Source of the DNA: Promethearchaeota archaeon
GTDB taxonomy: Archaea > Asgardarchaeota > Heimdallarchaeia > Hodarchaeales > Hodarchaeaceae
NCBI GenBank assembly: GCA_048938105.1
Contig: JBHLMN010000012.1
Coordinates: forward strand, 96,001 to 160,000
Length of the DNA stretch: 64,000 bases
Direction: 5' to 3'
The stretch's first letter is position 1, and every line of letters begins with the position of its first letter. The notes beneath the pieces are model-generated. The model saw only the letters and a list, made by a program, of their open reading frames with translations. It was not told the DNA's origin and ran no database searches. Below, piece after piece: positions 24,049 to 61,709 of the stretch. A program made the position numbers and the translations under genes.

Positions 24049-27018
24049 ATGACCGATGTTGAAAAGTATTCCCACTATGGTTTAGGTCTAGATGAGGTAT
24101 TTGAGCGACAACAGCAATTTGGGAAAAATGTTCTTCCTCGAAGGAAAAAACGAGCCCCTTTATCCATTTTTTTTACCCAATTTAAAAATCCTTTAATCTA
24201 CATCATTACCGTCGCTGCACTGATCTCATTCATTCTGGAACAATATGAAGATACTTTGATCATTGGAGCAGTGATTCTTCTAGATACTGCAATTGGTTTT
24301 TTTCAGGAAAATAAAGCTGAAAATACCATGGAAACGTTACGAAATCTTTTGAAGCCTACAACTAGGGTTATTCGGGATGGTAAAATTGAGGAGGTTGAAA
24401 GTGTAGAGATTGTGCCTGATGATCTTGTCGTTATTCATCCTGGTGACAAAATCCCTGCTGATGGAACTATTATTGAAACCGTAAATTTATCATTGAATGA
24501 GGCAATACTTACAGGTGAGAGTGAACCAATTTTTAAGAATCTAATAGATGCCAACCGTGTTTTTATGGGTACTACGGTTTTAGCAGGGAGAGGAATAATG
24601 AGAGTTACTCAAACTGGAATAAGAACTGAGCTGGGAAAAATAGCTTCCTCTCTCTCTGAAATTGAGGACGAAGAAACCCCACTCCAGATGAAACTTGAAG
24701 AATTTGGTAAAACACTTACTATGTTGGTACTTGCCATTAGTATTGCTATCTTTTTCACCGGAATTCTTTTGAGGTACGATATATTAGAAATGACTAGAAT
24801 GGCTGTGGTTCTCGCCATTGCAGCGATCCCTGAAGGACTTATTATCGCTGTTACTATGATTCTAGCAATTGGAATGCGAAAAACTCTCCAACGAAATGGT
24901 TTGGTGAAAAACCTTCTTGCTGTTGAAACTCTTGGTTCTGTTACAACAATATGTACTGATAAAACAGGTACACTTACTGAGGGAAAAATGCAAGTTGTGA
25001 AAACTGATTTTCCTGATGAAAAGATGGCTATTAACATAATGGTGTTATGTAACAATCTAGAAGATTCTCTTGAAATCCAACTCTGGAATTATGTAAAAAA
25101 CATTGGTTTAGATCCTGAAGAACTTACCAGGTCCCATGCTAGGGTTTTTGAAATTCCCTTCTCTAGCGAAAACAAATATATGGTAACAACAAATACATTG
25201 GACGGTAAAGAGATCAATTTAATGAAAGGTGCACCAGATATTGTTATGAATATCTGTCGACTTGAACCAAACGAAAAAAAGAAAATAATGGCCCAAATAG
25301 ATGAATGGTCAGGTTCGGGTTTGAAATTATTAGGTCTGGCTGCTAAAACTGAAGGTGACCTTAAACAATTAAATGATTACACTTGGAAAGGTTTGATTGG
25401 TATAGAGGATCCAATAAGGAAATCAGTGATTGATGCTATTGCATTATGTCGCCGGGCGGGTGTTAAGGTGAAGATAATCACAGGAGATTATCGGAATACT
25501 GCGATTAATATCGCTGCGAAATTAGGTTTATTTGTTGGCTCCGATCAGATTCTAGAAGGAATGGATTTAGAGAAATTCTCTGATGACAAACTAGATGAGG
25601 CTGTTGACCAAACCATCATTTTTTGCCGTGTTTCCCCTTATGATAAATTAAGAATTATTTCTTCTCTTCAACGCCGAGGTGAGATCACTGCAATGATTGG
25701 CGACGGCGTTAATGATGCACCTGCTCTTCGCAAAGCTAATATTGGTGTATCAGTTGGTGGTGCTACTGATGTTGCTCAGGAAACAGCTTCTCTAATATTG
25801 TTAGATCATAACTTTAAGACACTAGTCGATGCTGTGGAGGAAGGCCGAACTGTTTTCGATAATATCAAGAAGGTTGTTGCATTTGTTTTATCAAATTCTT
25901 TTGCTGAAATATTCACCATCTTTGGAGCTTTTATATTAGGATGGCCATCTCCATTGAATATCGCTCAAATCCTTTGGATCCATTTAATCTGTGATGGTCC
26001 ATCTGATATAGCTCTTGGGTTTGAAAGAGCAGAAACAGGAATCATGGATGAACCTCCACGTAAAATAGAAGAAAATATTTTAGATTCTAAAGGGAAGCTC
26101 TTAATCGCTTCTATTAGTTCCTTTTCAGCAATCTTTTGCCTTCTAATTTTTGGGTATTTTCTTTCTATGGGAAATCCACGAATGGGCAGTACTATTGTCT
26201 TTGTTATCCTTGGGATTCAATCTTTGGTTTATATCTTCTCTTTTAGAAGCTTAAGGCGATCTATTTTTAAATCAGGTAACTTCTTAGAAAATAAGGTACT
26301 GTTATTTTCAGTTATTTTAGGAATGATTCAAATTATCCTAGGCCTGTATATCCCATTTTTTAGTGATCTGCTTCAGGTTGAACCTCTACCGTTCTGGGGC
26401 TGGGGAATAGTTCTCATTATTTCAATGATTATGGTTATTACTGTAGAATTGGTTAAATTTATTGATAGAAAGGAACATGAAACACCAGCTTATGAATTAA
26501 TTTTCTCAAAAATCCATCAAATAGAACAGAAACTATCCACTGTTCATAATCTCCATAATTTATCAGTTGATATCATGGAAGATAAAACCTTATTACAATT
26601 CCACTTTAAAATCCCAGCTGAAACGACTTTAGAGGTAGCTCATGCAGTATCCAAAAGTCTAGAGGAACAGATCGCAGAGCAATTTCCCAGTTCATTAAGA
26701 GATCGTCTGAAAATCATCAGTCACATTGAACCTGCATATCTTCCAACGAAGAAAGTACATTACCATCCTCTGCCATCGATTACAGCGGAAATTCTAGAGA
26801 AAATCCAATATGCAGCTGATCAGATTCCCCAAATCAAGAAATGGCATCATGAAACAATTTTATTCGAGAAAGATATCATCTCGTTATCTTTGACTATCTA
26901 TTTATCAGGTAAAATGAATATTGTATCTGTTCATAACATTAATGATGAACTAGAATCAATGTTAAAGACTAGTATTCCCACTCTTAAACGATGTATTATA
27001 CATTCAGAACCTGTTTAA
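24049..27018 (+). CDS. P2-type cation-transporting ATPase with two C-terminal CDF-type (ZT_dimer-like) domains
   Basis: TGES, IPEGL, DKTGTLT, KGAP, TGD, GDGVND; C-terminal repeats ...TLEVAHAVS..LE..I...ISHIEP and ...IVSVHNI..ELE..L...IIHSEP. Confidence 0.9.
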   Translation: MTDVEKYSHYGLGLDEVFERQQQFGKNVLPRRKKRAPLSIFFTQFKNPLIYIITVAALISFILEQYEDTLIIGAVILLDTAIGFFQENKAENTMETLRNLLKPTTRVIRDGKIEEVESVEIVPDDLVVIHPGDKIPADGTIIETVNLSLNEAILTGESEPIFKNLIDANRVFMGTTVLAGRGIMRVTQTGIRTELGKIASSLSEIEDEETPLQMKLEEFGKTLTMLVLAISIAIFFTGILLRYDILEMTRMAVVLAIAAIPEGLIIAVTMILAIGMRKTLQRNGLVKNLLAVETLGSVTTICTDKTGTLTEGKMQVVKTDFPDEKMAINIMVLCNNLEDSLEIQLWNYVKNIGLDPEELTRSHARVFEIPFSSENKYMVTTNTLDGKEINLMKGAPDIVMNICRLEPNEKKKIMAQIDEWSGSGLKLLGLAAKTEGDLKQLNDYTWKGLIGIEDPIRKSVIDAIALCRRAGVKVKIITGDYRNTAINIAAKLGLFVGSDQILEGMDLEKFSDDKLDEAVDQTIIFCRVSPYDKLRIISSLQRRGEITAMIGDGVNDAPALRKANIGVSVGGATDVAQETASLILLDHNFKTLVDAVEEGRTVFDNIKKVVAFVLSNSFAEIFTIFGAFILGWPSPLNIAQILWIHLICDGPSDIALGFERAETGIMDEPPRKIEENILDSKGKLLIASISSFSAIFCLLIFGYFLSMGNPRMGSTIVFVILGIQSLVYIFSFRSLRRSIFKSGNFLENKVLLFSVILGMIQIILGLYIPFFSDLLQVEPLPFWGWGIVLIISMIMVITVELVKFIDRKEHETPAYELIFSKIHQIEQKLSTVHNLHNLSVDIMEDKTLLQFHFKIPAETTLEVAHAVSKSLEEQIAEQFPSSLRDRLKIISHIEPAYLPTKKVHYHPLPSITAEILEKIQYAADQIPQIKKWHHETILFEKDIISLSLTIYLSGKMNIVSVHNINDELESMLKTSIPTLKRCIIHSEPV

Positions 27019-49761: not shown

Positions 49762-50703
49762 TTAGCTTAATATTTCAATTAATTTGACCAAATCCTCTTT
49801 ATTGATGGCAACAACATCTGCTTCAGGAAATATATTGCGGTTGTTTTCTGAAATTCCCTGTCCTCCGATTGCAATACGAATTTGGTTTTTGAAAACATTA
49901 TGTAAATACTCTAAATTTCGTTTAAGAGTACCAAGATATAACGGAAGGGTAATGGAGATAAATATCCAATCAGGTAATTCAGGAAGATCTTTGATATATT
50001 TGATTAAGGATTGGATGGGTAAAGCTCGCCCCAGATTAATAATCTTGTAATTTAAATCCCGAAGAATATATTCTAAGGCAAATAAACTGAGAACATGTCT
50101 TTCACCTTCTACAGGTACTAAAATGATAATTCCTTTTTCCTCTATATTTTCATTTACTGGTATTCTTGCAACGATTAGCTCTTCAACGCGATTAGAAATA
50201 ATGTGTTCTTCCGCAGTTGAAAGATTCGCTTGAGCCCATTGTACACCGACCTCATGCATTAGTGGTGTGATAAAATCAACAATAAAGGGTGTACTATTAG
50301 GAAACATTGATTCTATGTTTACTGAGAACTCCTCAACATCATAATTTGATGATTTCAGATATCTGATCATTTCTTGTATGGAGGCTAATTTTAAAACAGA
50401 GGGTTTTTCTATTCTTCCTTTCTCCTCAGGCTTCTTCTTTTCTTTTAATATCTCATTCTCATGTATATATAGTTCTTTGATTAGATCATCAGTTAAATAT
50501 ACAACAGTATACCGCCCCCGTTTAAGTGGGCGTCGTTCGATTTCGATATAACCTTGTAAATTTAGTTCTTTTATGGCATTAGAAATTGTTGAACGTTTAA
50601 GATCTAAATTGGATGCAAGTTCAGAAACAGGGACTTCCCTTCCGCGATTTTGCCTTAAGTATCGAAAAATACGATCTCTGGCTGGTAATTGGACATTTTC
50701 CAT
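49762..50703 (-). CDS. wHTH + B12-binding regulator with CarH/LitR-type photoreceptor signature
   Basis: N-terminal MarR/ArsR-like wHTH (VSELASNLDLKRSTISNAIKELNLQGYI); helical cap PLMHEVGVQWAQANLSTAEEH (W-x9-EH); Rossmann domain EGERHVLSL, NLG..LP, ISIT, IGGQG; downstream of crtB on the same strand. Confidence 0.85.
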   Translation of the reverse strand: MENVQLPARDRIFRYLRQNRGREVPVSELASNLDLKRSTISNAIKELNLQGYIEIERRPLKRGRYTVVYLTDDLIKELYIHENEILKEKKKPEEKGRIEKPSVLKLASIQEMIRYLKSSNYDVEEFSVNIESMFPNSTPFIVDFITPLMHEVGVQWAQANLSTAEEHIISNRVEELIVARIPVNENIEEKGIIILVPVEGERHVLSLFALEYILRDLNYKIINLGRALPIQSLIKYIKDLPELPDWIFISITLPLYLGTLKRNLEYLHNVFKNQIRIAIGGQGISENNRNIFPEADVVAINKEDLVKLIEILS

Positions 50704-50772: not shown

Positions 50773-51717
50773 CTAAAGTTTACGAAGGTACTCTAAACGT
50801 ACTTTAGTTGCCAAAATAATCTTTCTTAGTTTAGAAACAACTGCCCGTTGATTTAATATTTGATAATCAATTCTTTTTATCTCATTTAGAATTTCCCCAT
50901 AGACTCTTGAGGCCACTTTTACAGTATAAGCTCCTGCAGGTGGTAATTCCTCAATACCAAGATCAGCTATCTTATAAAGAGCTTTCGCTCGCTCTGATTC
51001 GTAACGAATGAGTGATTTGAGGTTCTCATTCACTTTATCACCCCTTAGATCCTCAATCGTAACCTGATAATCATTCCGAGTTTCTTCTGGTAGATATATT
51101 CGCCCCTTGAGGAAATCCTCTTTGATATCTCTTAATATATTGGTTAATTGCATTGCTCTACCTAGATCTGCAGCTCGTGCTAGAGTTCGTTTTTCTGGAT
51201 TTTTGATGAAGATGTGAGTCATCATTAAACCAACAGTACTTGCAACCCGATACATGTATAAGTCAAGTTCTTCTTCTGAATAGTACTCGGTTTTTATAAG
51301 ATCCATTCTCACACCTTCTATAAGCTCATGCATGTAATTAACTGGAATTTGATGTTTACGTAACGTATCTCCAAAGGCATGAAGGATAGGATTTGTAGAG
51401 CTATATCCATTGGCCAATTTTGTTATAGTACTTTTCAATCGATCAAGTTCAAAATTAATCTTATCAATCGTAATCCCCTTAGGGGCTTCATCAACTATAT
51501 CATCACTTAAACGACATATAGCATAGAGAGCAGCAACGCTTTTACGCTGATCTTCAGGTAAAAATCGACTAGCGAAATAGAATGACTTGCTATGCTCTAT
51601 CATCCAGTCTAGACAGATTTGATAGCTTTCTTCAAGTGTTTCATCCATCAAACTATGTTTAGGTGTCGTACTTTTGGGAAGAAGTTCCCAATCAATTGTT
51701 TTGTGAGTTGAATACAT
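50773..51717 (-). CDS. crtB: Phytoene synthase
   Basis: HSKSFYFASRFLP, ALYAICRLSDDIVD, YMYRVASTVGLM, LGRAMQLTNILRDIKED..GRIYLP, RAVVS. Confidence 0.95.
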   Translation of the reverse strand: MYSTHKTIDWELLPKSTTPKHSLMDETLEESYQICLDWMIEHSKSFYFASRFLPEDQRKSVAALYAICRLSDDIVDEAPKGITIDKINFELDRLKSTITKLANGYSSTNPILHAFGDTLRKHQIPVNYMHELIEGVRMDLIKTEYYSEEELDLYMYRVASTVGLMMTHIFIKNPEKRTLARAADLGRAMQLTNILRDIKEDFLKGRIYLPEETRNDYQVTIEDLRGDKVNENLKSLIRYESERAKALYKIADLGIEELPPAGAYTVKVASRVYGEILNEIKRIDYQILNQRAVVSKLRKIILATKVRLEYLRKL

Positions 51718-51840: not shown

Positions 51841-51861
51841 GGATAAATAAAAGTGAGAAAA

Positions 51862-53436
51862 ATGAGTAATGGACATAATAAACGTAATATAGCCTTTGAT
51901 AATAAAAACCCTGAAACGTTTCTCGAATCAGTGGTAATTATAGGCTCTGGGATTGGTGGACTGGCGGCGGGAATACGCCTTCAGACAACAGGAAAATTTA
52001 ATGTTACTATTATAGAAAAACTAGACCAAGTTGGTGGTCGGGCCAGAGTCTTTAAAGATCAAGGGTTTACTTTTGATGGAGGTCCTACGGTAATAACTGT
52101 ACCTGACATTTTTAAGGATTTATTTACTTTACCTGGTCGAAAAATGGAGGATTATGTCGAATTAATACCAGTGGAGCCGTTTTATCGAATCCATTTTAAC
52201 GATGGGACATTTTTTGATTATTCTACTCCGGAAAAAAATATACCTCAAATTGAAAAAGTAAATCCTGAAGATGTAGAAGGATATAAACGCATGCTTAAAG
52301 CAGTTCGACCGATCTACGAGAAGGGGTTCAAAGAATTATCATTTAAACCTTTTAACAAGTTTACTTCAATGCTTAAAGTAGCTCCCTCCCTCATCAAGTT
52401 ACAATCATACCGTTCAAATTATAAATTTGTCTCTAAATATATAAAAAATGAGAATCTCCGAATGGTATTTAGTTTTCACCCTTTACTTATTGGGGGGAAT
52501 CCTTTCTCGGTTCCATCAATTTATAGTCTTATTCAATACCTGGAAAAAGAATTTGGAGTTTGGTTTGTGCGTGGTGGTACAAATGCTTTAGTTCAGGCGT
52601 TAGCAAACTTATTTGAGGAGCTTGGGGGTAAAATCATTTTGAATAGTGAGGTTAAAAAAATTGAAGTTAAAGATAATCAAGTAGAGGGCGTTTTAACTGT
52701 TTCGAATGATTTTTATCCAAGTAAAATCGTAATAAGTAATGCTGACCCCGCTTTTACATACACAAAAATGATTGATGCAGAGTGGCGCAGGAAAAACAGT
52801 GATAAGCGTTATAAAAAAGCGAAATATTCTATGGGATTAGTTGTAATTTATTTTGGAACGAAAAGACAATATCCAAATATGAAACATCACACTATTATTT
52901 TGGGTCCCCGGTATAAAGGACTAATAGAAGATATTTTCAAGAAAAAGATTTTAGCAGAAGATTTTTCGAGCTATTTACATCTCCCCACTCGGACTGATCC
53001 AAGTTTAGCTCCTGAAGGACATGAAGCCTTTTATATCCTGATTCCCGTCCCTCATCAAGATTCTGGTATTAATTGGGAAGAAATGGCTGAACCATTTAAA
53101 CAACGAATCTTTGATTTTCTGAATGAAAATTATCTCCCTGAACTAAAAGAGAACTTAGTGACAGAGCGAATTTTTACTCCTCTAGATTTTGAACGAGACT
53201 ATAATAGCTTTAAAGGATCTGGTTTTTCTGTTGAACCAATTTTTACTCAATCAGCGTGGTTCCGTCCACATAACAAATCTGAAGATATTGATGGTCTTTA
53301 TTTAGTGGGTGCTGGAACCCATCCAGGAGCAGGATTGCCTGGAGTTGTCTCCAGTGCAAAAGTAACCACAGATTTGATCATCAATGGGAAAAATGGATTT
53401 TCAAAAAAACCCTCTGGAATAAGTAATGCTAATTAG
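51862..53436 (+). CDS. crtI: Phytoene desaturase (CrtI family)
   Basis: IGSGIGGLAAGIRL, GGRA....GFTFDGGPTVIT, FSFHPLLIGGNPF, QSAWFRPHN, LYLVGAGTHPGAGLPGV. Confidence 0.95.
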   Translation: MSNGHNKRNIAFDNKNPETFLESVVIIGSGIGGLAAGIRLQTTGKFNVTIIEKLDQVGGRARVFKDQGFTFDGGPTVITVPDIFKDLFTLPGRKMEDYVELIPVEPFYRIHFNDGTFFDYSTPEKNIPQIEKVNPEDVEGYKRMLKAVRPIYEKGFKELSFKPFNKFTSMLKVAPSLIKLQSYRSNYKFVSKYIKNENLRMVFSFHPLLIGGNPFSVPSIYSLIQYLEKEFGVWFVRGGTNALVQALANLFEELGGKIILNSEVKKIEVKDNQVEGVLTVSNDFYPSKIVISNADPAFTYTKMIDAEWRRKNSDKRYKKAKYSMGLVVIYFGTKRQYPNMKHHTIILGPRYKGLIEDIFKKKILAEDFSSYLHLPTRTDPSLAPEGHEAFYILIPVPHQDSGINWEEMAEPFKQRIFDFLNENYLPELKENLVTERIFTPLDFERDYNSFKGSGFSVEPIFTQSAWFRPHNKSEDIDGLYLVGAGTHPGAGLPGVVSSAKVTTDLIINGKNGFSKKPSGISNAN

Positions 53437-54260
53437 TGGAAGAAATTGTAATGTTAACATATTTCATCTTCCTCCTTTTCTTTATTGTTATACCTTTGAT
53501 GGTAATCAGTTTTTTTTATTATAAGAAATATCGTGGAGGGGAAGAATATCAAAAAACGATGATAAAAAAAATCTTAATTGTGTTAGCGATATTAATAATT
53601 GTAGCTATTACTTATACTACTCCATGGGATAATTTTCTCGTCGAAAATGGCATTTGGTATTATGAGACATCGAAAGTTATGGGTATTTTAATTGGTTTTG
53701 TACCCATTGAAGAATATGGCTTTTTCGTATTGCAGACTCTCTTTATTGGATTGCTATTCGGATGGATTCTGCTTCATAGAAAGAAAATCAGTCATAATCA
53801 GAATAATTTTAGAGTTAATTTACGCCTGATTTCAGCGATTGGGCTACTTATTGTTTGGATTGTAGGATTTCTTGCATTTATTAACAGAATAGAAACTTTA
53901 ACTTATCTGAATTTAATCCTTTTATGGGGAATACCTCCAATAATGATTCAACTGATCTATGGCGCTGATATTCTCTGGTTGTACAATCGAGACCTTATCT
54001 CAGTCATCTCTCTCTCAACTATTTACTTAGCTATTGCAGATACTATTGCGATTGCAGATGGAATCTGGACAATTAGTATAAATACATCAACAGGGATTCT
54101 TTTGGCTGGAGTTTTACCTATTGAAGAGTTTGTCTTTTTCTTGGTCACTAATATATTAATTACTTTTGGATTAACCTTAATGATTGATTCTAGGAGTATT
54201 GATAGATTTCATCAATACTTTTCTAGATTAAAAGAACACAAGTGGAGAAATAAGTTATGA
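53436..54260 (+). CDS. crtY: Lycopene cyclase, fused heterodimeric type (CrtYc/d / CarR-like, two domains)
   Basis: YTTPWDNFLV..GIW...PIEEYGFF and AD.IAI..GIW...LPIEEFVFF; translationally coupled to crtI. Confidence 0.9.
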   Translation: MEEIVMLTYFIFLLFFIVIPLMVISFFYYKKYRGGEEYQKTMIKKILIVLAILIIVAITYTTPWDNFLVENGIWYYETSKVMGILIGFVPIEEYGFFVLQTLFIGLLFGWILLHRKKISHNQNNFRVNLRLISAIGLLIVWIVGFLAFINRIETLTYLNLILLWGIPPIMIQLIYGADILWLYNRDLISVISLSTIYLAIADTIAIADGIWTISINTSTGILLAGVLPIEEFVFFLVTNILITFGLTLMIDSRSIDRFHQYFSRLKEHKWRNKL

Positions 54261-54377: not shown

Positions 54378-54830
54378 ATGTTAAATAACGTAATAGAATA
54401 TCTTAATGAGTCTGTAATACCTTTGCGGCTTTCTGGTACCACTAAATCAGGCTGGCCATTTGTAATGAGCCTTTGGTATGTTTATTTAAATGAAAAAATT
54501 TACTTAGCAACTATAAAATCAGCTAAAGTCGTTGATTATCTTTCTAATAACCCCAAATGTGCTTTTGAAATTGCCAGTGATACTCCACCTTATTGTGGGA
54601 TTCGAGGACAAGCAATGGCAAAAATTATTGAATCTAAGGGGGATGAAATTCTAAAAATCCTTCTAAATCGTTATCTAGGAGGAGAAAATAGTCCTTTAGC
54701 CCGAAGACTGTTGAATCAACGTATACCAGAGGTTGCGATTGAGCTTACTCCTGTTAAAGTGTATCAATGGGATTATAGTAAGCGAATGATTGACTCGATT
54801 GAATTTTCTTCAGTTAAAAAGTGTCCATAA
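54378..54830 (+). CDS. Pyridoxamine 5'-phosphate oxidase-like flavin-binding protein
   Basis: PLRLS....GWPFVMSLWY, CAFEIA...PPYCGIRGQA, WDYSKRM. Confidence 0.85.
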   Translation: MLNNVIEYLNESVIPLRLSGTTKSGWPFVMSLWYVYLNEKIYLATIKSAKVVDYLSNNPKCAFEIASDTPPYCGIRGQAMAKIIESKGDEILKILLNRYLGGENSPLARRLLNQRIPEVAIELTPVKVYQWDYSKRMIDSIEFSSVKKCP

Positions 54831-54867: not shown

Positions 54868-55287
54868 ATGTCAGATATCAAATATTCTGCTGGAGTATGC
54901 AATATCGGTGACGCTGAAATAAAACAAAGACGTCGATTAGGATATATAGGCATTGGTCTTACTGTGATAGCAATTATTGTATATTTAGGATTGATTTATT
55001 CTATAAAATTAGATCCATTCTTTGGAGTGATTATTTTCATACCTGCTGAAATGTCAGCTATTGGGTTAATTCAAGCTAGGAACAAATTTTGCGCTGCTTA
55101 TGGATTGATTCACCAACAGAACGTTTCCTCAAGCTTAGGCTTAACTGTGAAAATAGGCAATAAAAATTCCCAGAGAAAGGATAGGAACAAAGCTCTTAAA
55201 ATTATTTTTCAATCCCTAGTAATTGCGATTATCATTACTGTTTTTACAGTTATTGGAGGGATTTTGATAGCTCAAAGTATTATTTAG
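54868..55287 (+). CDS. 3-TM conserved membrane protein with two Cys motifs (DUF2892/YgaP-like pattern)
   Basis: GVCNIGDAEIKQRRR and QARNKFCAAYG; GGTGA RBS. Confidence 0.6.
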   Translation: MSDIKYSAGVCNIGDAEIKQRRRLGYIGIGLTVIAIIVYLGLIYSIKLDPFFGVIIFIPAEMSAIGLIQARNKFCAAYGLIHQQNVSSSLGLTVKIGNKNSQRKDRNKALKIIFQSLVIAIIITVFTVIGGILIAQSII

Positions 55288-55376
55288 GTTTGAATATAGG
55301 TTGAAAAAAAGCATAAGAGATAAATATGAATCAAATCAATATACTCAATCTTAGGGAGAGGATTTTTCCTACTCCA

Positions 55377-56114
55377 TTAAAAAATTCGTCCTAGTGACGC
55401 GTCTAAGATTTTTCCAGTCATTAGAGGAGTAGTTGCAGCAAATTCTATCATTTCATTCAAATCCTTAGGTAATAATGGGTAATTAAGAAGCTGTTTTGAT
55501 ATTAATTTCGATGATAGAACCTCAATTGTTGTACCATTATCCATAGATTTCTTTTCCAATTCTCTATTATGTCGATCCGTAAAAACATATGTAGGAGAAA
55601 CTCCGTTAATTCGAATTTTGGGAGCCAAAACTCTAGCCATTGTACGAATTAAATAGACTAATCCAGCTTTCGCAACTCCATAAGGCATTTTATCCAATGA
55701 AGGTTCATAAGCAGCAGAACTAACGATATGTACTATAGCTCCGCCTTCTATCATAAGTTCAGCTGCCATTCTTGTTAATAAGAAAGCAGATGTTAGATTC
55801 ACATTTATTACACGATTGAAAAATGAAGCATCCACTTCTAATGGATTTTTTGAAGCCAAGGATCCCCCTATATTATTTATCAGAATGTCTATTGATCCAA
55901 TTTTAGTCTGTACCCATTTCTTTACCTTTCTAATTCCTTCCTCGGTTGTGCAATCAGCTGCAATATTATTAATTCCTGGAAAACGATCATTTATCATATT
56001 TAGACTGGATATGAGAACCTCATTATTCTGATTAGAAAGTTTTCTCATAATTGCCTCTCCAATCCCTCCAACAGCAACACCAGTAACTAGAATTTTCTTA
56101 TTTTCGATGATCAT
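55377..56114 (-). CDS. Short-chain dehydrogenase/reductase
   Basis: LVTGVAVGGIG, DILINNIG, VNL, YGVAK, IRINGVSP. Confidence 0.9.
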   Translation of the reverse strand: MIIENKKILVTGVAVGGIGEAIMRKLSNQNNEVLISSLNMINDRFPGINNIAADCTTEEGIRKVKKWVQTKIGSIDILINNIGGSLASKNPLEVDASFFNRVINVNLTSAFLLTRMAAELMIEGGAIVHIVSSAAYEPSLDKMPYGVAKAGLVYLIRTMARVLAPKIRINGVSPTYVFTDRHNRELEKKSMDNGTTIEVLSSKLISKQLLNYPLLPKDLNEMIEFAATTPLMTGKILDASLGRIF

Positions 56115-56159: not shown

Positions 56160-56648
56160 CTAGTCATCTATTTTCAGAGTTTGAGTTTTAAGTAATTTAT
56201 AATTTTTAGGAAATCCCCAATCTTCAATCTTATTGTAACTTGTTTTTTTTGATCGAAAATGTACCCATATTGTTGTACTATCAAGAAGTGGATTAGCATG
56301 GTAATGCTTTTGATCACCATATCGAAAAGCTTCTAGTACTAGGGGTAATTCCTGACGAAAAATTCTATCACGAAACTTTAAAGGGCCAATTCCCCCACTT
56401 ACTTGACAATAGACATGGAGTGAATATACATTTTCGGTTTTCAACCATTCAGCTAACACTTCATCCCGCATTATCCGTGTTTGCCATCCTTTTAGTTGTT
56501 TTTTGTTAAACTCATGGGCAATGGTGAGAAATAAATCTCCTGTCCGATCTGAATGGGTTAATGTATAGCAACGAGGTACTAGAGGAGAATCAATGGTTGT
56601 TGGGGGTATAAATGTAACATTTAGTTTATTTGGGTTTAAGCGATTCAA
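56160..56648 (-). CDS. sgr: Stay-Green (SGR) family protein, putative Mg-dechelatase
   Basis: PRCYTLTHSDRTGDLFLTI, RDEVLAEW, LHVYCQVSG, RIFRQELPLVLEAFRYGD, WVHFRS....YNKIEDWG; all SGR blocks present. Confidence 0.92.
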   Translation of the reverse strand: MNRLNPNKLNVTFIPPTTIDSPLVPRCYTLTHSDRTGDLFLTIAHEFNKKQLKGWQTRIMRDEVLAEWLKTENVYSLHVYCQVSGGIGPLKFRDRIFRQELPLVLEAFRYGDQKHYHANPLLDSTTIWVHFRSKKTSYNKIEDWGFPKNYKLLKTQTLKIDD

Positions 56649-56674: not shown

Positions 56675-58177
56675 CTAAGTTGTAGATAAATAATAGGGCT
56701 TAGGAGTAGAGCTTATTTTAGTATATGTAAGACTATCTCCAGGAATATCCCTACAAATTTCCTCTAACAGCTTTTTTGACAGCATGTCGAAAAATGGTTG
56801 GATCATAAACCAATAGGCTATCCCAATAAGCCCTTTTGGGACTATTCGAAAAATCTGATGAAGTTCAATTTTTTTGTGATTAATACGCCTTAAACGATAT
56901 CTTAGGATGGTATAACCAGGTAAGATGAAATCTGTATGTAATGTTAATTCTTTCTTTGGAATTTTATTCTGAATTGAAAGAGGAGTCTTTTTCATCTCTC
57001 CCTTGTCCTTAAAACCTTTGAAAAAACCGTTTAGAAAAGCACCAAATTTCCATAAGTATAAATTGATCTGAAAATTTCTATATTTCTCAATCTGAAGTAA
57101 TTTGTTCCACAAATTCTCAGGATTACTAGTTAAAATAGCCTTACGATGATCTTGGAAGACAAATCCTCCAGACCAGGATGGATCCCCTGGAATGTGCCAT
57201 TCAACGGGTAAATCATAATAGCTAGAATAACTTCCGTACCTAAGATACTGTTGGGGGTTTAATGCTAATCGAATTGCTTGTTTATGGTTTAGTAACTTCT
57301 GTGGAATCAATTCTCGTATCCTAAAATCATGACAAACAACCTCATTCTTCATTCCATCTATTAATGGACGAGCTAAAGATGATTGAATGCCTGTAATCAA
57401 TCTTATCCAATAGGAGCTTAGGCTAGGAGTGAAGAAAGGGATAGGGAGAATTAAACGCTTTGGTAGTGCCATAATTTCCACATAACTCTCCATAAACTGT
57501 TTATAAGTGATAATATCTGAACCACCAATATCAAAGGTCTCACCGATTGTTTCTGGTACATCTAAACAGTCAGTTAGATATTTCAGAACATTTCGAATAG
57601 CTATTGGTTGATTTCTTGTTCTAAGCCACTTGGGTGTAATCATAATTGGCAATCTATTGACTAGATACCTCATCATCTCAAAAGCTGCGCTTCCACTCCC
57701 AATAATAATTGCTGCACGTAACGTTGTAACTGGTACTGAACATGAATTCAGTATTCTGGAAACTTCGATTCGAGACTGTAGATGCTTACTTAATTTTTCT
57801 TTTTCGTCCCCTAATCCCCCAAGATAAATAATTCTTTCAATTGCTGCCTTTTCAGCTGCAATTATTGTGTTTTGGGCTGCAATTCTATCAGATCTAATAA
57901 AATCTTTTATTTTTCCTTCCATAGAATGGATTAAATAGTAAACCGAGGAGACTTCTTCCATTGCGTCTTCTAAGGTTTTAATATCGAAAACATTAAGATT
58001 TACCGTTTTCAAATTCCTATGATGACTCCATAATCTCATATTTAGCTTGTCTTTTGACCTAAACCCCACTCGTACAATATATCCTTTCTTTAAGAGTTTT
58101 GGTACAAGTCTGGAACCTATGTAACCTGTGGCCCCAAGTACAAGAACTTCTTTTTGTTTCAAGGGAAATCTACTCAT
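56675..58177 (-). CDS. Atypical SDR (YbjT-like) with C-terminal DUF2867-like domain
   Basis: GATGYIGSRL, YYLIHSM, IYLGGLG, SKHLQSR, LRAAIIIGSGSAAFE, RLPIMITPKW, QPIAI, GDPSWSGG, PKGLIGIAYW. Confidence 0.88.
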   Translation of the reverse strand: MSRFPLKQKEVLVLGATGYIGSRLVPKLLKKGYIVRVGFRSKDKLNMRLWSHHRNLKTVNLNVFDIKTLEDAMEEVSSVYYLIHSMEGKIKDFIRSDRIAAQNTIIAAEKAAIERIIYLGGLGDEKEKLSKHLQSRIEVSRILNSCSVPVTTLRAAIIIGSGSAAFEMMRYLVNRLPIMITPKWLRTRNQPIAIRNVLKYLTDCLDVPETIGETFDIGGSDIITYKQFMESYVEIMALPKRLILPIPFFTPSLSSYWIRLITGIQSSLARPLIDGMKNEVVCHDFRIRELIPQKLLNHKQAIRLALNPQQYLRYGSYSSYYDLPVEWHIPGDPSWSGGFVFQDHRKAILTSNPENLWNKLLQIEKYRNFQINLYLWKFGAFLNGFFKGFKDKGEMKKTPLSIQNKIPKKELTLHTDFILPGYTILRYRLRRINHKKIELHQIFRIVPKGLIGIAYWFMIQPFFDMLSKKLLEEICRDIPGDSLTYTKISSTPKPYYLSTT

Positions 58178-58189
58178 TCTAAGAGGACA

Positions 58190-58960
58190 TCAATAATCTT
58201 GACGAGCTTTCCAGAAATCACCATAAAAGAAAAATCCAATCAGTTGAGAAAATACGAATATTATTGATATAACTATTCCTAAATACTGTAATATAAGAAT
58301 TTGATTACTATGGAAGATATACAGAGGGATAAAGTTCAATAAGAACCAAATCCACGAAAGAATTGGAGCAGATATGAACATAAGAGATCTTTTCCATTTT
58401 GAAACAGATAAGAAGGAACTCAAATCATATTTTATTCCAAAAATAGGAAGTTTCGTTATAGGTGTCCAAGCTAGCAAGTTTGATTTACGAAATGTGGATT
58501 TGAAAATAAAATAATTTCTAAAGTTTAATCCTAAAAGAAAACCAAATATGCAATGGATTACGGTATGAGAGAGCATAAAGTTTACAAAACTGATTAGAAA
58601 GAACAAAATAACACTAAACCAAAAATCTACAGAAAAATAAAAGGCTAAAAAATAAAGAATTTCTGAGATGAGAACACCAACTGAGAATAGTAAAGTTCCG
58701 ACTTTAATTGAAAATTTTGGAACGTTCCAACTATCGAAGAAGAATTCATCAATTCTCCCTAAAATATCTATTTCTTCCTCTGTTATTTTTACTTTTCGTG
58801 CATATTTTACAGCAGTTTGATATTTTCTCCAATGACTCTTCCGATTTAATGTTCCTGTTTCATATGAATCCTCTAAATCCTTGATATTCCTACTAAAATT
58901 AGTGTTATCCATTTGAGAACCTTCCCTAGAACTGTAGTTCTTATTAGTTATACTTAACAT
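58190..58960 (-). CDS. Uncharacterised membrane protein with HxxxH motif (M50/zincin-like, lacking the catalytic Glu)
   Basis: ~4 TM; LSHTVIH, ISAP, GDFWKA; directly downstream of heliorhodopsin on the same strand. Confidence 0.6.
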   Translation of the reverse strand: MLSITNKNYSSREGSQMDNTNFSRNIKDLEDSYETGTLNRKSHWRKYQTAVKYARKVKITEEEIDILGRIDEFFFDSWNVPKFSIKVGTLLFSVGVLISEILYFLAFYFSVDFWFSVILFFLISFVNFMLSHTVIHCIFGFLLGLNFRNYFIFKSTFRKSNLLAWTPITKLPIFGIKYDLSSFLSVSKWKRSLMFISAPILSWIWFLLNFIPLYIFHSNQILILQYLGIVISIIFVFSQLIGFFFYGDFWKARQDY

Positions 58961-59019: not shown

Positions 59020-59832
59020 TTAAGCAAATATTAACCCCATAAATACAATCCAAGCTAATGCTGATTTTGCAAAGAGGCTTAATAATTGATAACCTCGTTC
59101 TCCATATAGATAATCTTTCCATGGGCCTATTTTCTTATACTGAAGAAACATATTCAAGGCAAAGCTGTTAAAGAAGACGAAATAAACTACTAAGGCAATA
59201 TAGACAAAAGTAGGAACTTCTCGTCCAACTGTGTTAATACTCAAGAATGTATCAAGGATGACGATCCAGGGCATTATTCCAGCTATCCATCCTAGGATAT
59301 AAGGAGCCCAGCTTGTTTTTTCAGTATATTGGTTATAAGTCTCCATTAACAACCCAAACATGTTCATTAATCCATTAAGCACGAATATCAGAGCAAGAAT
59401 CCAAAATTCTAGTATTCCAAAAGCTAAAGCAATGAATATGATCATCACTGAACTGGAAAAAGCATACTCATACCAACGTACTGGATTCATTTCTTTCTTT
59501 AAATTGGTAACATATTTGTTATATAATGGAAAAGCAATCAGTAAATGAGCAATAGCTGACATTAGAAGAAAACTAGCAAGCAGGATACCTGCAATGTTTT
59601 CAAAAGTGAAAAAAACTTCGGGGATAGGCTCAAGAACTGGACGAGTACCAGTTAATTCTTTTATTCCTAAATACGACCTATAAATGTCGATTTTGAAGTT
59701 TTTTATTTCATCAATTACTAAACTCAGAGCAAATATAACTGTTGCTTGCACTAAGTGCAAGATACCCATGGCTATATTGAATTTCCGGAGATAGGAAAAT
59801 GATATTTTTGACTTTTCAATGTTAGTTGACAT
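59020..59832 (-). CDS. heR: Heliorhodopsin
   Basis: LRKFNIAMGILHLVQA, FLLMSAIAH, NPVRWYEYAFSSSVM (counterion E), MNMFGLLME, FNSFALNMFLQYKKIGPWKDYLYGERGY, LSLFAKSALAW (retinal-binding Lys); GGAGG RBS. Confidence 0.97.
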   Translation of the reverse strand: MSTNIEKSKISFSYLRKFNIAMGILHLVQATVIFALSLVIDEIKNFKIDIYRSYLGIKELTGTRPVLEPIPEVFFTFENIAGILLASFLLMSAIAHLLIAFPLYNKYVTNLKKEMNPVRWYEYAFSSSVMIIFIALAFGILEFWILALIFVLNGLMNMFGLLMETYNQYTEKTSWAPYILGWIAGIMPWIVILDTFLSINTVGREVPTFVYIALVVYFVFFNSFALNMFLQYKKIGPWKDYLYGERGYQLLSLFAKSALAWIVFMGLIFA

Positions 59833-60051
59833 TAAGCAACCTCCTATGGATTTAGACAGAAGAGTCCTTCTTTATATATTCATTATGATAATTAAAACGT
59901 AAATCACCAATAAATCTAGATCTAGAATTAATGACTTGAATCAGGATGAAGTTCTATTACTGAAAAAATAAAGAATCTATTATAATGTGAACCTAAAACT
60001 TGCTGATTGATGAACTAGTACTTCTAAAATCACAAAGAATGGTGAAGGCTG

Positions 60052-60828
60052 ATGTCTCTTACAAAACAAAAACAATTTTTGATTTATGGTAACATCTTGA
60101 GCTTTTTATTAACTATCGTGATGAATTCTTTAGCCAACATCCTTCCTTTGAATGGAAAAACAACTGCAGAACTCAGTGACTCTTTCCCTAACTTATTTGT
60201 CCCCGCTGGGTATGTTTTTAGTATCTGGGGATTGATCTACATTTTATTAGCAATTTTCACGGTTTCCCAAGCCCTTCCCAAGTATAGAGAGGAGGATGTT
60301 ATTGAAAAAATCTCCTATTTCTTTATTATAAGCAATCTGGCTAATTCATCATGGATTGTATTTTGGCACTTTGAAATAATAATCGCATCCTTATTGGTTA
60401 TGTTGATACTCCTTGTATCTTTAATACTAATCTATACCCGATTAGAAATTGGAAAGAAGCCCGTGAGTGAAAAAATTAAGATCACTTCTCATATCCCATT
60501 TAGTGTTTACCTGGGATGGATTACTGTTGCAACTGTTGCAAATGTTACAGCTTTACTTGTATCAATAAACTGGGATGGTTTTGGCATAAGTGAAGTCATC
60601 TGGACTGCAGTTGTAATAAGTGTTGCAACAATAATTGCACTAGTTATCGTATTCACCCGGAAAGACTATGCCTACGTTCTTGTCCCCGTCTGGGCTTTTA
60701 TAGGAATAGCAGTAAAGCAATTAAATACTCAAAACGATGTTGTTATAATTTCTGTTATAGCAGCAGTTATTTTAGTCATAACATTGCTTGTTAGACTTTC
60801 ATTGGATTTAGTTCAGAATCGAAAATGA
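60052..60828 (+). CDS. tspO: TspO/MBR-like tryptophan-rich sensory protein (long form)
   Basis: N.LA..LPLNG.TT.ELSD, FVPAGYVFSIWGLIY, NSSWIVFW, PFSVYLGWITVATVAN, VWAFIGI. Confidence 0.78.
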   Translation: MSLTKQKQFLIYGNILSFLLTIVMNSLANILPLNGKTTAELSDSFPNLFVPAGYVFSIWGLIYILLAIFTVSQALPKYREEDVIEKISYFFIISNLANSSWIVFWHFEIIIASLLVMLILLVSLILIYTRLEIGKKPVSEKIKITSHIPFSVYLGWITVATVANVTALLVSINWDGFGISEVIWTAVVISVATIIALVIVFTRKDYAYVLVPVWAFIGIAVKQLNTQNDVVIISVIAAVILVITLLVRLSLDLVQNRK

Positions 60829-61709
60829 ATGATAATAATTTTAGATCACTAATTACTTCACTCATAATAATATGCATTGCTGCATGTCTTGCACTCATTG
60901 GTAGCCACAGGGGTATAACTGTTTTTGGTGGAATACCAGTATTTGCACTTGGAGTAGCTATTGCCTTTATAATTCAATGGATTGCGTTTATACCTGCTTA
61001 TATCAAAAGAACAGAGAAATTTTTCGATTTGACTGGCTCTTTGACTTACAGTATTGTGATTATTTTTTCAGTTGTTTTGAGTTCTGAAATCAATATACGA
61101 TCTATTTTACTGATGTTTTTGGTCTTGATCTGGGCGATTCGCCTTGGTATGTTCTTGTTTAGGAGAATACTGAAAGAGGGTGAGGATAAACGCTTCAAGG
61201 AAATCAAAGAATCAGGTTCGCGTTTTCTATTAACTTGGACTCTTCAAGGTTTGTGGGTTAGCTTTACATTAGCAGCTGCATTGGCTGCGATCACAGTAAA
61301 ACAGAGGGTAGAATTTGGCGTCTTTGGTTTAATTGGTCTTCTGGTTTGGATCATAGGCTTTGGATTTGAAGCTGTTGCAGACTATCAGAAGAGTAAATTC
61401 AGATCTATTCCTGAAAACAAAGGAAAATTTATTACTACTGGATTATGGTCGATATCACGACATCCCAATTACTTTGGAGAGATCCTCCTATGGATCGGTA
61501 TTGCAATCATTGCACTTCCAACACTTCAAGGTTGGAGATGGCTAACACTAATTTCTCCTATTTTTGTCACATTATTATTGACCAAGGTTAGTGGTATTCC
61601 ATTACTTGAGAAACATGCAGATGAAAAGTGGGGTGGTCAGGAGGAATATGAGCAATACAAAAGTAAGACTCCAGTATTAATCCCAAGGCCATTCTTCAAA
61701 TCAAATTAA
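60825..61709 (+). CDS. DUF1295 (steroid 5-alpha-reductase/ICMT-fold) membrane protein
   Basis: TEKFFDLTGS, WAIRLG.FLF.RI...GEDKRF, WTLQGLW, EAVADYQK, GLWSISRHPNYFGE, SGIPLLE; ATGA overlap with tspO. Confidence 0.9.
   Translation: MNDNNFRSLITSLIIICIAACLALIGSHRGITVFGGIPVFALGVAIAFIIQWIAFIPAYIKRTEKFFDLTGSLTYSIVIIFSVVLSSEINIRSILLMFLVLIWAIRLGMFLFRRILKEGEDKRFKEIKESGSRFLLTWTLQGLWVSFTLAAALAAITVKQRVEFGVFGLIGLLVWIIGFGFEAVADYQKSKFRSIPENKGKFITTGLWSISRHPNYFGEILLWIGIAIIALPTLQGWRWLTLISPIFVTLLLTKVSGIPLLEKHADEKWGGQEEYEQYKSKTPVLIPRPFFKSN

Follow-up and report, generated by a model that had tools for sequence, protein, structure and literature searches.

A Staygreen Mg-dechelatase homologue in a heliorhodopsin gene cluster of an Asgard archaeon, and the light-related genes that recur beside its relatives

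The SGR gene and its neighbours

We analysed a stretch of 64,000 nucleotides from the genome of a Promethearchaeota archaeon (hereafter the window), which carries on its minus strand, at 56160-56648, a gene with a TTG start for a 162-aa homologue of the Staygreen (SGR) Mg-dechelatases. The protein belongs to the SGR family: against the Pfam Staygreen profile (PF12638) it scores 166.2 bits (E 5.5e-49; cut-off 27), and the match spans residues 4-150, corresponding to positions 2-147 of the 147 in the profile. The TTG start is probably correct, because in the alignment it coincides with the initial Met of 19 homologues; the protein starts with the conserved core and extends 10 residues beyond it. 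Among solved structures its sole relative is PDB 7Y5Y (49-50% identity; E 1e-45 across residues 1-152), that is AbSGR-h of Anaerolineae bacterium SM23_63, a bacterial homologue with demonstrated Mg-dechelatase activity, which dechelates chlorophylls a, b and c, chlorophyllide, and protochlorophyllide in vitro by means of H32, D34, and D62, residues whose catalytic role was established by mutagenesis and from the crystal structure (PMC8531759, PMC11006732). The identity of 49-50% to AbSGR-h holds over the full length, and both are stand-alone soluble proteins of about 155-160 aa. In the alignment the window SGR has all three catalytic residues at positions identical to those of AbSGR-h, within the blocks T31-H32-S33-D34 and R61-D62-E63-V64; R26, Y28, T29, T31, T36, R61, and E63 are likewise equally numbered, and among the structural residues (R26, Y28, T29, and D112) the last corresponds to D114 of AbSGR-h. 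D34 and D62 are invariant in 106 of 106 relatives, while H32 is kept in 105 of them. An AlphaFold2 model (pLDDT 79.6) was matched by Foldseek to 7y5y_A (E 3.2e-20; TM 0.84/0.89) and to nothing else below E 0.001. With a dN/dS of 0.10-0.22 against same-genus orthologues, the gene is under purifying selection. Given the intact profile, the catalytic residues, the fold, and the dN/dS, we therefore regard the gene as real, intact, and under selection; its sequence places it in the AbSGR-h subfamily of prokaryotic SGR homologues, and the protein is probably an active dechelatase.

SGR is the fourth of five co-directional minus-strand genes, separated by gaps of 59, 12, 26, and 45 bp. The first is an intact heliorhodopsin at 59020-59832 (PF18761, E 2.4e-85; 303 bits to the NCBIfam HeR equivalog, whose cut-off is 100), which lies 2.4 kb upstream of SGR with two genes in between. 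One of these (58190-58960, minus strand) encodes a 5-TM membrane protein with an HxxxH motif, of no known family (no Pfam or NCBIfam match), and is found near SGR only in the window and in its closest relative (locus L137). The other, at 56675-58177 on the same strand and 26 bp upstream of SGR, encodes an NmrA-like NAD(P)-binding domain (PF13460/PF05368) fused to DUF2867 (a weak PF11066 match). The last gene, 45 bp after SGR, is a classical short-chain dehydrogenase (SDR; 55377-56114, minus strand; PF00106, E 1.8e-31); no specific NCBIfam model matched it at cut-off, the matches obtained being generic SDR ones and all far below, and it is found near SGR only among same-genus relatives. A purine-rich, Shine-Dalgarno-like site stands ahead of each cluster gene, and a run of seven T follows the SDR. 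The likely promoters lie in the divergent intergenic region between the heliorhodopsin and a TspO-like gene (59833-60051, assigned to neither strand); that of the heliorhodopsin has a TATA-like ATATATAAAG about 45 nt before the ATG, and GGAGGT 8 nt before it. The five genes are probably transcribed as one operon from this promoter. A T-rich stretch 3' of the heliorhodopsin could attenuate transcription.

Light-related genes flank the cluster on both sides. Upstream of it, and divergent, are the genes for a long TspO-like membrane protein of 258 aa (60052-60828, plus strand; PF03073, 27.9 bits, cut-off 24) and for a DUF1295 membrane protein, steroid-reductase/ICMT-like (60825-61709, plus strand; PF06966, E 2.1e-70). 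On the downstream side four plus-strand genes converge on the cluster: crtI (51853-53436; PF01593, E 2.1e-36); a two-domain lycopene cyclase (53436-54260; TIGR03462 lycopene cyclase domain, E 2.1e-32); a PNPOx-like protein (54378-54830; weak PF01243 match); and a 3-TM protein (54868-55287). The last two are also found near SGR in same-genus relatives. Beyond them, on the minus strand, lie the phytoene synthase gene crtB (50773-51717; PF00494, E 1.7e-73) and a B12-binding winged-helix regulator (49762-50703; HTH and PF02310 B12-binding). The regulator and the crt genes lie within 6 kb. By its gene content, the predicted operon is part of a light and photo-oxidative-stress island made up of carotenoid genes, the B12-binding regulator, and the TspO-like and DUF1295 genes. 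A 13-mer, TTSATGAAYTAGT, occurs once each in the crtB/crtI promoter and in the heliorhodopsin/TspO promoter, as 11/13-identical sites from which the motif itself was derived; we did not count it as evidence for a shared operator, since by our own estimate chance alone would give about four matches of this quality (11/13) between the two regions and further repeats carry little information, and no operator common to the crt and heliorhodopsin promoters was significant in the two regions.

The B12-dependent light regulons of the CarH/LitR type, known from non-phototrophs, comprise carotenoid genes and photolyase. The window resembles them in having a B12-binding regulator together with crt genes, and a MerR-B12 CarH adjoins SGR in several Chloroflexota loci. 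Unlike those regulons, however, the window has a winged-helix regulator in place of one with a MerR DNA-binding domain, and the heliorhodopsin is preceded by no significant shared operator.

An earlier note on this DNA, made from the letters alone, had read the gene as an SGR with all family blocks, co-oriented with the heliorhodopsin and embedded among light-protection genes; our analysis bears out each of these points, the TH-S-D and RDEV blocks being complete, both genes lying on the minus strand, and crtB, crtI, the lycopene cyclase, the B12-binding regulator, and the TspO-like and DUF1295 genes all being real. It had also described SGR as tightly packed with two SDRs. The packing stands, and so does the classical SDR at 55377-56114, but the gene at 56675-58177 encodes the NmrA-like/DUF2867 protein and no classical SDR.

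Pigment genes of the host genome

The window genome amounts to 5.85 Mb and is 99% complete; the SGR loci nearest to its own come from Hodarchaeota, Hermodarchaeota, and Heimdallarchaeota. The host had been taken for a non-phototroph, and the genome agrees: it has no match to the Type-II reaction centre (Photo_RC, PF00124; control positive), nor to HemB (PF00490) or HemC (PF01379), for which the controls were positive in 11 of 14 genomes. With neither HemB nor HemC in a genome of this completeness, any tetrapyrrole substrate of SGR would therefore be exogenous. The same genome gave no match to pheophorbide a oxygenase (PAO, PF08417; control positive), and its best match to chlorophyllase (PF07224), at 22 bits, is below the cut-off. 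There was also no match in it to CCD/RPE65 (PF03055) or to DNA photolyase (PF00875), each with a positive control; in the search for Blh the control was silent.

The chlorophyll a Mg-dechelatases of plants (SGR1, SGR2, and SGRL) belong to the same Pfam family and have the same catalytic residues. They differ from the window SGR in structure and in setting: the window protein lacks both the N-terminal transit peptide and the C-terminal Cys-rich tail that are present in the plant-like aligned sequence, and its host lacks chlorophyll, tetrapyrrole synthesis, PAO, and chlorophyllase. A senescence-type turnover of the host's own pigment is therefore not the task of this SGR.

SGR neighbourhoods in Archaea and Bacteria

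Across 399 genomes of the Asgard phylum, in which the coordinates of SGR and heliorhodopsin were joined by hand, SGR was found in 107, heliorhodopsin in 131, and both in about 80. The two genes share a contig and lie at most 5 kb apart in 29 genomes, and 9 kb apart in one more; their arrangement varies between co-directional, divergent, and convergent. Were two single-copy genes placed at random in a genome of 4 Mb, such proximity would be expected in about 0.25% of genomes, and the linkage is more frequent than chance, related genomes being non-independent observations in these counts. It is confined to three families: f1, the window's genus (7/11 genomes), f7 (1/3), and f20 (22/56). In three same-genus relatives from f1, the heliorhodopsin lies upstream of SGR with gaps of 43-54 bp. 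In about 60% of the Asgard genomes with both genes these are on different contigs, many of them short; they are unlinked also in two closed genomes (G187 and G367). Co-occurrence at the level of the genome is strong, heliorhodopsin accompanying SGR in 11 of 12 SGR genomes of f1, 3 of 3 of f7, and 56 of 64 of f20, and three genomes whose only SGR is decayed (G059, G031, and G186) have no heliorhodopsin. In another family, f12, 10 of the 19 genomes have SGR and none of the 19 has heliorhodopsin; there an intact SGR is placed between peroxiredoxin and photolyase, in the order AhpC-SGR-photolyase-crtI/crtB.

A second sample comprised 80 loci picked by SGR similarity alone, from Asgard archaea, Bathyarchaeia/Thermoproteota, Chloroflexota, and a few other phyla; loci L135-L154, which had been fetched for their heliorhodopsin, were excluded from the rates. 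Within 5 kb of SGR we found heliorhodopsin in 16 of the 80 loci, an MFS transporter also in 16, photolyase in 14, peroxiredoxin (AhpC) in 11, NmrA/DUF2867 and crtI in 9 each, an alpha/beta hydrolase in 8, and a MerR-B12 CarH in 4, and DUF1295 near SGR in 6, the list of light-linked families having been completed partly after inspection of the data; unsupervised clustering recovered the same neighbour families. The linked heliorhodopsin lies immediately upstream of SGR in 12 of the 16 loci, 10 of these 12 being from Chloroflexota; it is then co-oriented with SGR and 16-170 bp away. Where heliorhodopsin is absent, SGR adjoins photolyase, peroxiredoxin, and crt genes. TspO-like proteins repeatedly adjoin it, and the reductase that recurs beside it is the NmrA/DUF2867 protein, not a classical SDR. 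The linkage to heliorhodopsin and crt genes thus extends beyond the window to other Asgard archaea, Thermoproteota, and Chloroflexota, and the earlier note, which its absence elsewhere would have refuted, is not refuted on this count; the recurrent partners that SGR has in both domains are heliorhodopsin, photolyase, crt, peroxiredoxin, TspO, and NmrA/DUF2867. On the SGR tree, in which Asgard and Chloroflexota clades are intermixed, adjacency to heliorhodopsin changes state at least 14 times, and the heliorhodopsins linked to SGR belong to no fewer than four distinct clades.

As a control, 80 loci with SGR of the Bacillota type were run through the same pipeline, and none had heliorhodopsin, photolyase, TspO, NmrA/DUF2867, or peroxiredoxin (AhpC) within 5 kb; their neighbours are generic (ABC transporters, two-component systems, MCP, AraC). 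The light context is therefore specific to the AbSGR-h/Asgard subfamily and not a property of the whole family. Proteins of the Bacillota type share with the window SGR the Pfam domain and the TH-S-D and RDE motifs, but lack a five-residue GWxTR segment and are often fused to DUF3888. Fused forms gave no Rosetta-stone support for the linkage: the only fusions that turned up join SGR to DUF3888, FG-GAP, or DUF4397, in that subfamily, and none joins it to heliorhodopsin, photolyase, or the like.

The biochemically characterised relative has a neighbourhood of the same kind. On a contig of Anaerolineae W379 (locus L113), a protein whose 62 compared residues all agree with AbSGR-h is encoded by the last gene of a co-directional array: photolyase-SDR-NmrA/DUF2867-DUF1475-DegV-TspO-DUF4345-DUF3159-SGR. 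Three of these partners match the window, namely NmrA/DUF2867, the TspO-like protein, and the SDR; the TspO-like gene, a 50%-identical orthologue of that in the window, is 1.3 kb upstream of the AbSGR-h gene. The two loci differ in that the host of the window is an archaeon and its SGR is placed in a predicted heliorhodopsin operon, whereas the AbSGR-h array is headed by photolyase, with the heliorhodopsin of that genome on another contig.

Possible roles of SGR in the light island

To our knowledge, most heliorhodopsins are without an accepted function. Partner operons have been described for AbHeR with glutamine synthetase (PMC9529153), TfHeR with photolyase (PMC9769723), and OcHeR with OmrDE (PMC11109279), and the window is like them in that the heliorhodopsin is on the same strand as, and close upstream of, a soluble enzyme, and in that the pairing recurs across taxa; it is unlike them in that the pairing with SGR spans Archaea and Bacteria. 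The genomic marks of a heliorhodopsin-partner operon all apply to the pair in the window: an intact heliorhodopsin, a common strand, an operon-like array, and recurrence across taxa. Staygreen is neither among the ten published classes of heliorhodopsin neighbours (PMC11109279) nor listed in the neighbourhoods of Bulzu 2021 (PMC8612252), and we found no paper on a link between heliorhodopsin and Staygreen. SGR in archaea, for its part, has been published already, by the account that PMC8531759 gives of Obata 2019. Dey et al. 2021 state that it is unknown what the bacterial homologues do physiologically. The window SGR thus adds a member to a known family; what is new is its context of heliorhodopsin and light island, which falls within the known themes of heliorhodopsin partners and light regulons and constitutes no new kind of system.

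The reading that we prefer, and hold at about an even chance, is that SGR of the light island strips Mg from exogenous chlorophyll-type tetrapyrroles in the light and is co-expressed with the heliorhodopsin. The five-gene unit would be expressed or activated in light; chlorophyll-type pigments would enter the cell from decaying or neighbouring phototrophs (chlorophyll from algal detritus, proposed by the earlier note, may be one such substrate, and gains indirect support from a host that cannot make tetrapyrroles itself); SGR would remove the Mg and so begin the neutralisation of these photosensitisers; and the free-base products would be handled by the TspO-like protein, the reductases, or transporters, or be exported. 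The heliorhodopsin would give the light cue, or regulate SGR directly. What we infer here is the in vivo substrate, the induction by light, and the way in which SGR and its neighbours share the work. Free-base chlorins such as pheophytin and pheophorbide still act as photosensitisers, so that removal of Mg alone would be no detoxification; neither a ring-opening enzyme (PAO) nor a chlorophyllase could be recognised in the window genome, which also speaks against detoxification. The reading is further weakened by the promiscuity ascribed to the bacterial homologues, by the lack of a significant operator shared with the crt promoter, and by those Asgard genomes in which SGR and heliorhodopsin are unlinked. 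The recurrent link of SGR to heliorhodopsin, photolyase, and carotenoid genes in Archaea and Bacteria yields, for both proteins, a testable hypothesis of light-cued handling of foreign chlorophyll pigments. With AbSGR-h already expressed and crystallised, and with Chloroflexota in culture, the long-standing question of the role of SGR becomes directly testable.

Direct regulation of SGR by the heliorhodopsin is compatible with this reading and does not exclude it, the essential link being then a protein-protein regulation rather than co-expression, and we find it attractive. Taken as an explanation of its own, in which the light-activated heliorhodopsin switches the activity of the soluble SGR oligomer by binding it at the membrane, it is possible though on the unlikely side. 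The close upstream, same-strand position of heliorhodopsin (16-170 bp in 12 of the 80 loci, and 43-54 bp in the three same-genus relatives), the strong co-occurrence in f1, f7, and f20, and the absence of heliorhodopsin from the three genomes with a decayed SGR all favour it, as do the heliorhodopsins known to regulate enzymes of their own operon, namely glutamine synthetase, photolyase, and an ABC exporter (PMC9529153, PMC9769723, PMC11109279). Against it stands f12, where SGR is intact in a similar context of AhpC, photolyase, and crt although heliorhodopsin is missing from all 19 genomes; in the genome of AbSGR-h the two genes are on separate contigs, in the window two genes stand between them, and fused forms of the two proteins were not found.

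Rather doubtful in our judgement is the proposal that SGR takes part in a photo-oxidative stress response with a native substrate other than chlorophyll, such as scavenged Zn- or Mg-porphyrins or a lipid or carotenoid-derived compound, its activity on chlorophyll being promiscuous. The literature leans towards promiscuity and broad specificity (PMC8531759, PMC11006732), and the dechelation of chlorophyll by bacterial homologues is described as a promiscuous activity by Obata 2019, as cited in PMC8531759, from which it follows that the native substrate of SGR may be something else. Several recurrent partners, moreover, handle lipid or pigment (NmrA/DUF2867, DUF1295, DegV, the MFS transporter, the alpha/beta hydrolase), and the downstream enzymes of chlorophyll catabolism are absent from the window genome. 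Against this stand the invariance of the active-site residues that bind the Mg of chlorophyll and the recurrence of TspO-like, tetrapyrrole-binding proteins beside SGR. We know, furthermore, of no member of the SGR family with an alternative substrate.

That SGR might be the missing retinal-forming enzyme of a genome without CCD/RPE65 is very improbable: it is kept in f12 without heliorhodopsin, and the chemistry of its family is metal removal. A nutritional, plant-like catabolism, running from SGR through dephytylation to a PAO-type ring opening with SDRs comparable to NYC1/NOL, is likewise very improbable, and the plant-like side of the module suggested by the earlier note finds no support. 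An alpha/beta hydrolase does adjoin SGR in 8 of the 80 loci, and a 2026 preprint that reports SGR in an Asgard lineage predicts chlorophyll degradation in prokaryotes, with one Asgard lineage holding the full enzyme complement (bioRxiv 10.64898/2026.03.19.712979). The window genome, however, has no PaO domain and no chlorophyllase above cut-off, and we rejected the pathway; the neighbours of SGR are photoprotective rather than catabolic, and the SDR, generic in its matches and kept within the genus only, lends no specific support to an analogy with NYC1/NOL. Mere hitch-hiking of SGR on a horizontally mobile light island, with no functional link, would fit the mixed Asgard/Chloroflexota clades of the SGR tree, which suggest transfer between domains, but is scarcely credible for a gene under purifying selection whose linkage survives many rearrangements and at least four heliorhodopsin clades, persists with other partners where heliorhodopsin is absent, and has no counterpart in the Bacillota subfamily.

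A broader extension of our preferred reading, which we offer as speculative and think unlikely, is that heliorhodopsin and SGR form an ancient, cross-domain photoprotective module, in which heliorhodopsin would sense light and switch on the Mg-dechelatase, by co-expression or by binding, so as to disarm chlorophyll-type photosensitisers scavenged from neighbouring phototrophs, and that plant SGR would descend from this subfamily of non-phototrophs. The enzyme of leaf senescence in plants might then have come from a photoprotection regulon of non-photosynthetic microbes. Such a descent from a light-stress subfamily would explain why GWxTR is shared with eukaryotes and not with the Bacillota type: as the five-residue segment GW(Q/Y)TR, it is common to the AbSGR-h/Asgard subfamily, the window SGR included, and to plant SGR and other eukaryotic SGR-like sequences.

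The TspO-like protein and tetrapyrrole supply

The 'TspO' of the window (60052-60828) is a long form of ca. 260 amino acids that scores barely above the Pfam cut-off. It shares 50% identity with the protein encoded at L113:5366-6151, in the Anaerolineae locus of AbSGR-h, the characterised bacterial SGR homologue; because of this identity between an Asgard and an Anaerolineae sequence, the two long proteins look like a distinct SGR-associated TspO-like family. Neither HemB nor HemC was found in the organism's own genome (99% complete; controls positive in 11 of 14 genomes). The regulator of the light-related island nevertheless carries a B12-binding domain; the cell would need to take up cobalamin from outside, as well as whatever haem it uses.

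Photolyase and a second SGR copy

In L137 (G072:C2), the locus of the window's closest relative, a photolyase gene lies between the SDR and 3-TM genes; the corresponding interval in the window (55288-55376) is only an 89-bp gap. No PF00875 photolyase domain was detected in the whole of the 99% complete own genome (control positive), an odd absence for an organism that retains a light-response island. In the same genome, another copy of SGR has decayed to a fragment (G000:C39:223443-223589, equivalent to L002:1501-1647) that covers residues 108-155 only, with 65% identity to the window protein, and is interrupted by two in-frame TAG stops.

SGR neighbourhoods in other lineages

The SGR neighbourhood is conserved in the Asgard family f12, a lineage without heliorhodopsin: at L126, L128, and L129 a peroxiredoxin gene lies upstream on the same strand, and a photolyase gene is convergent to SGR, with crtI and crtB next. 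No light-related neighbours occur within 5 kb of the Bacillota-type Staygreen genes (80 loci). This subfamily lacks the GWxTR segment; profile searches revealed frequent C-terminal fusion to DUF3888 (P0133, P0149, P0162, P0180, P0249, P0264, P0190), and additionally collagen-like repeats in one protein.

Other proteins of the window

Directly after heliorhodopsin lies the gene for a 5-TM protein of 256 amino acids (58190-58960), with no family match in Pfam or NCBIfam; among the SGR loci compared, it lies near SGR only in the window and its closest relative. Elsewhere, a P-type cation ATPase (24049-27018) bears a C-terminal cation-diffusion-facilitator dimerisation domain (PF16916), an unusual combination.
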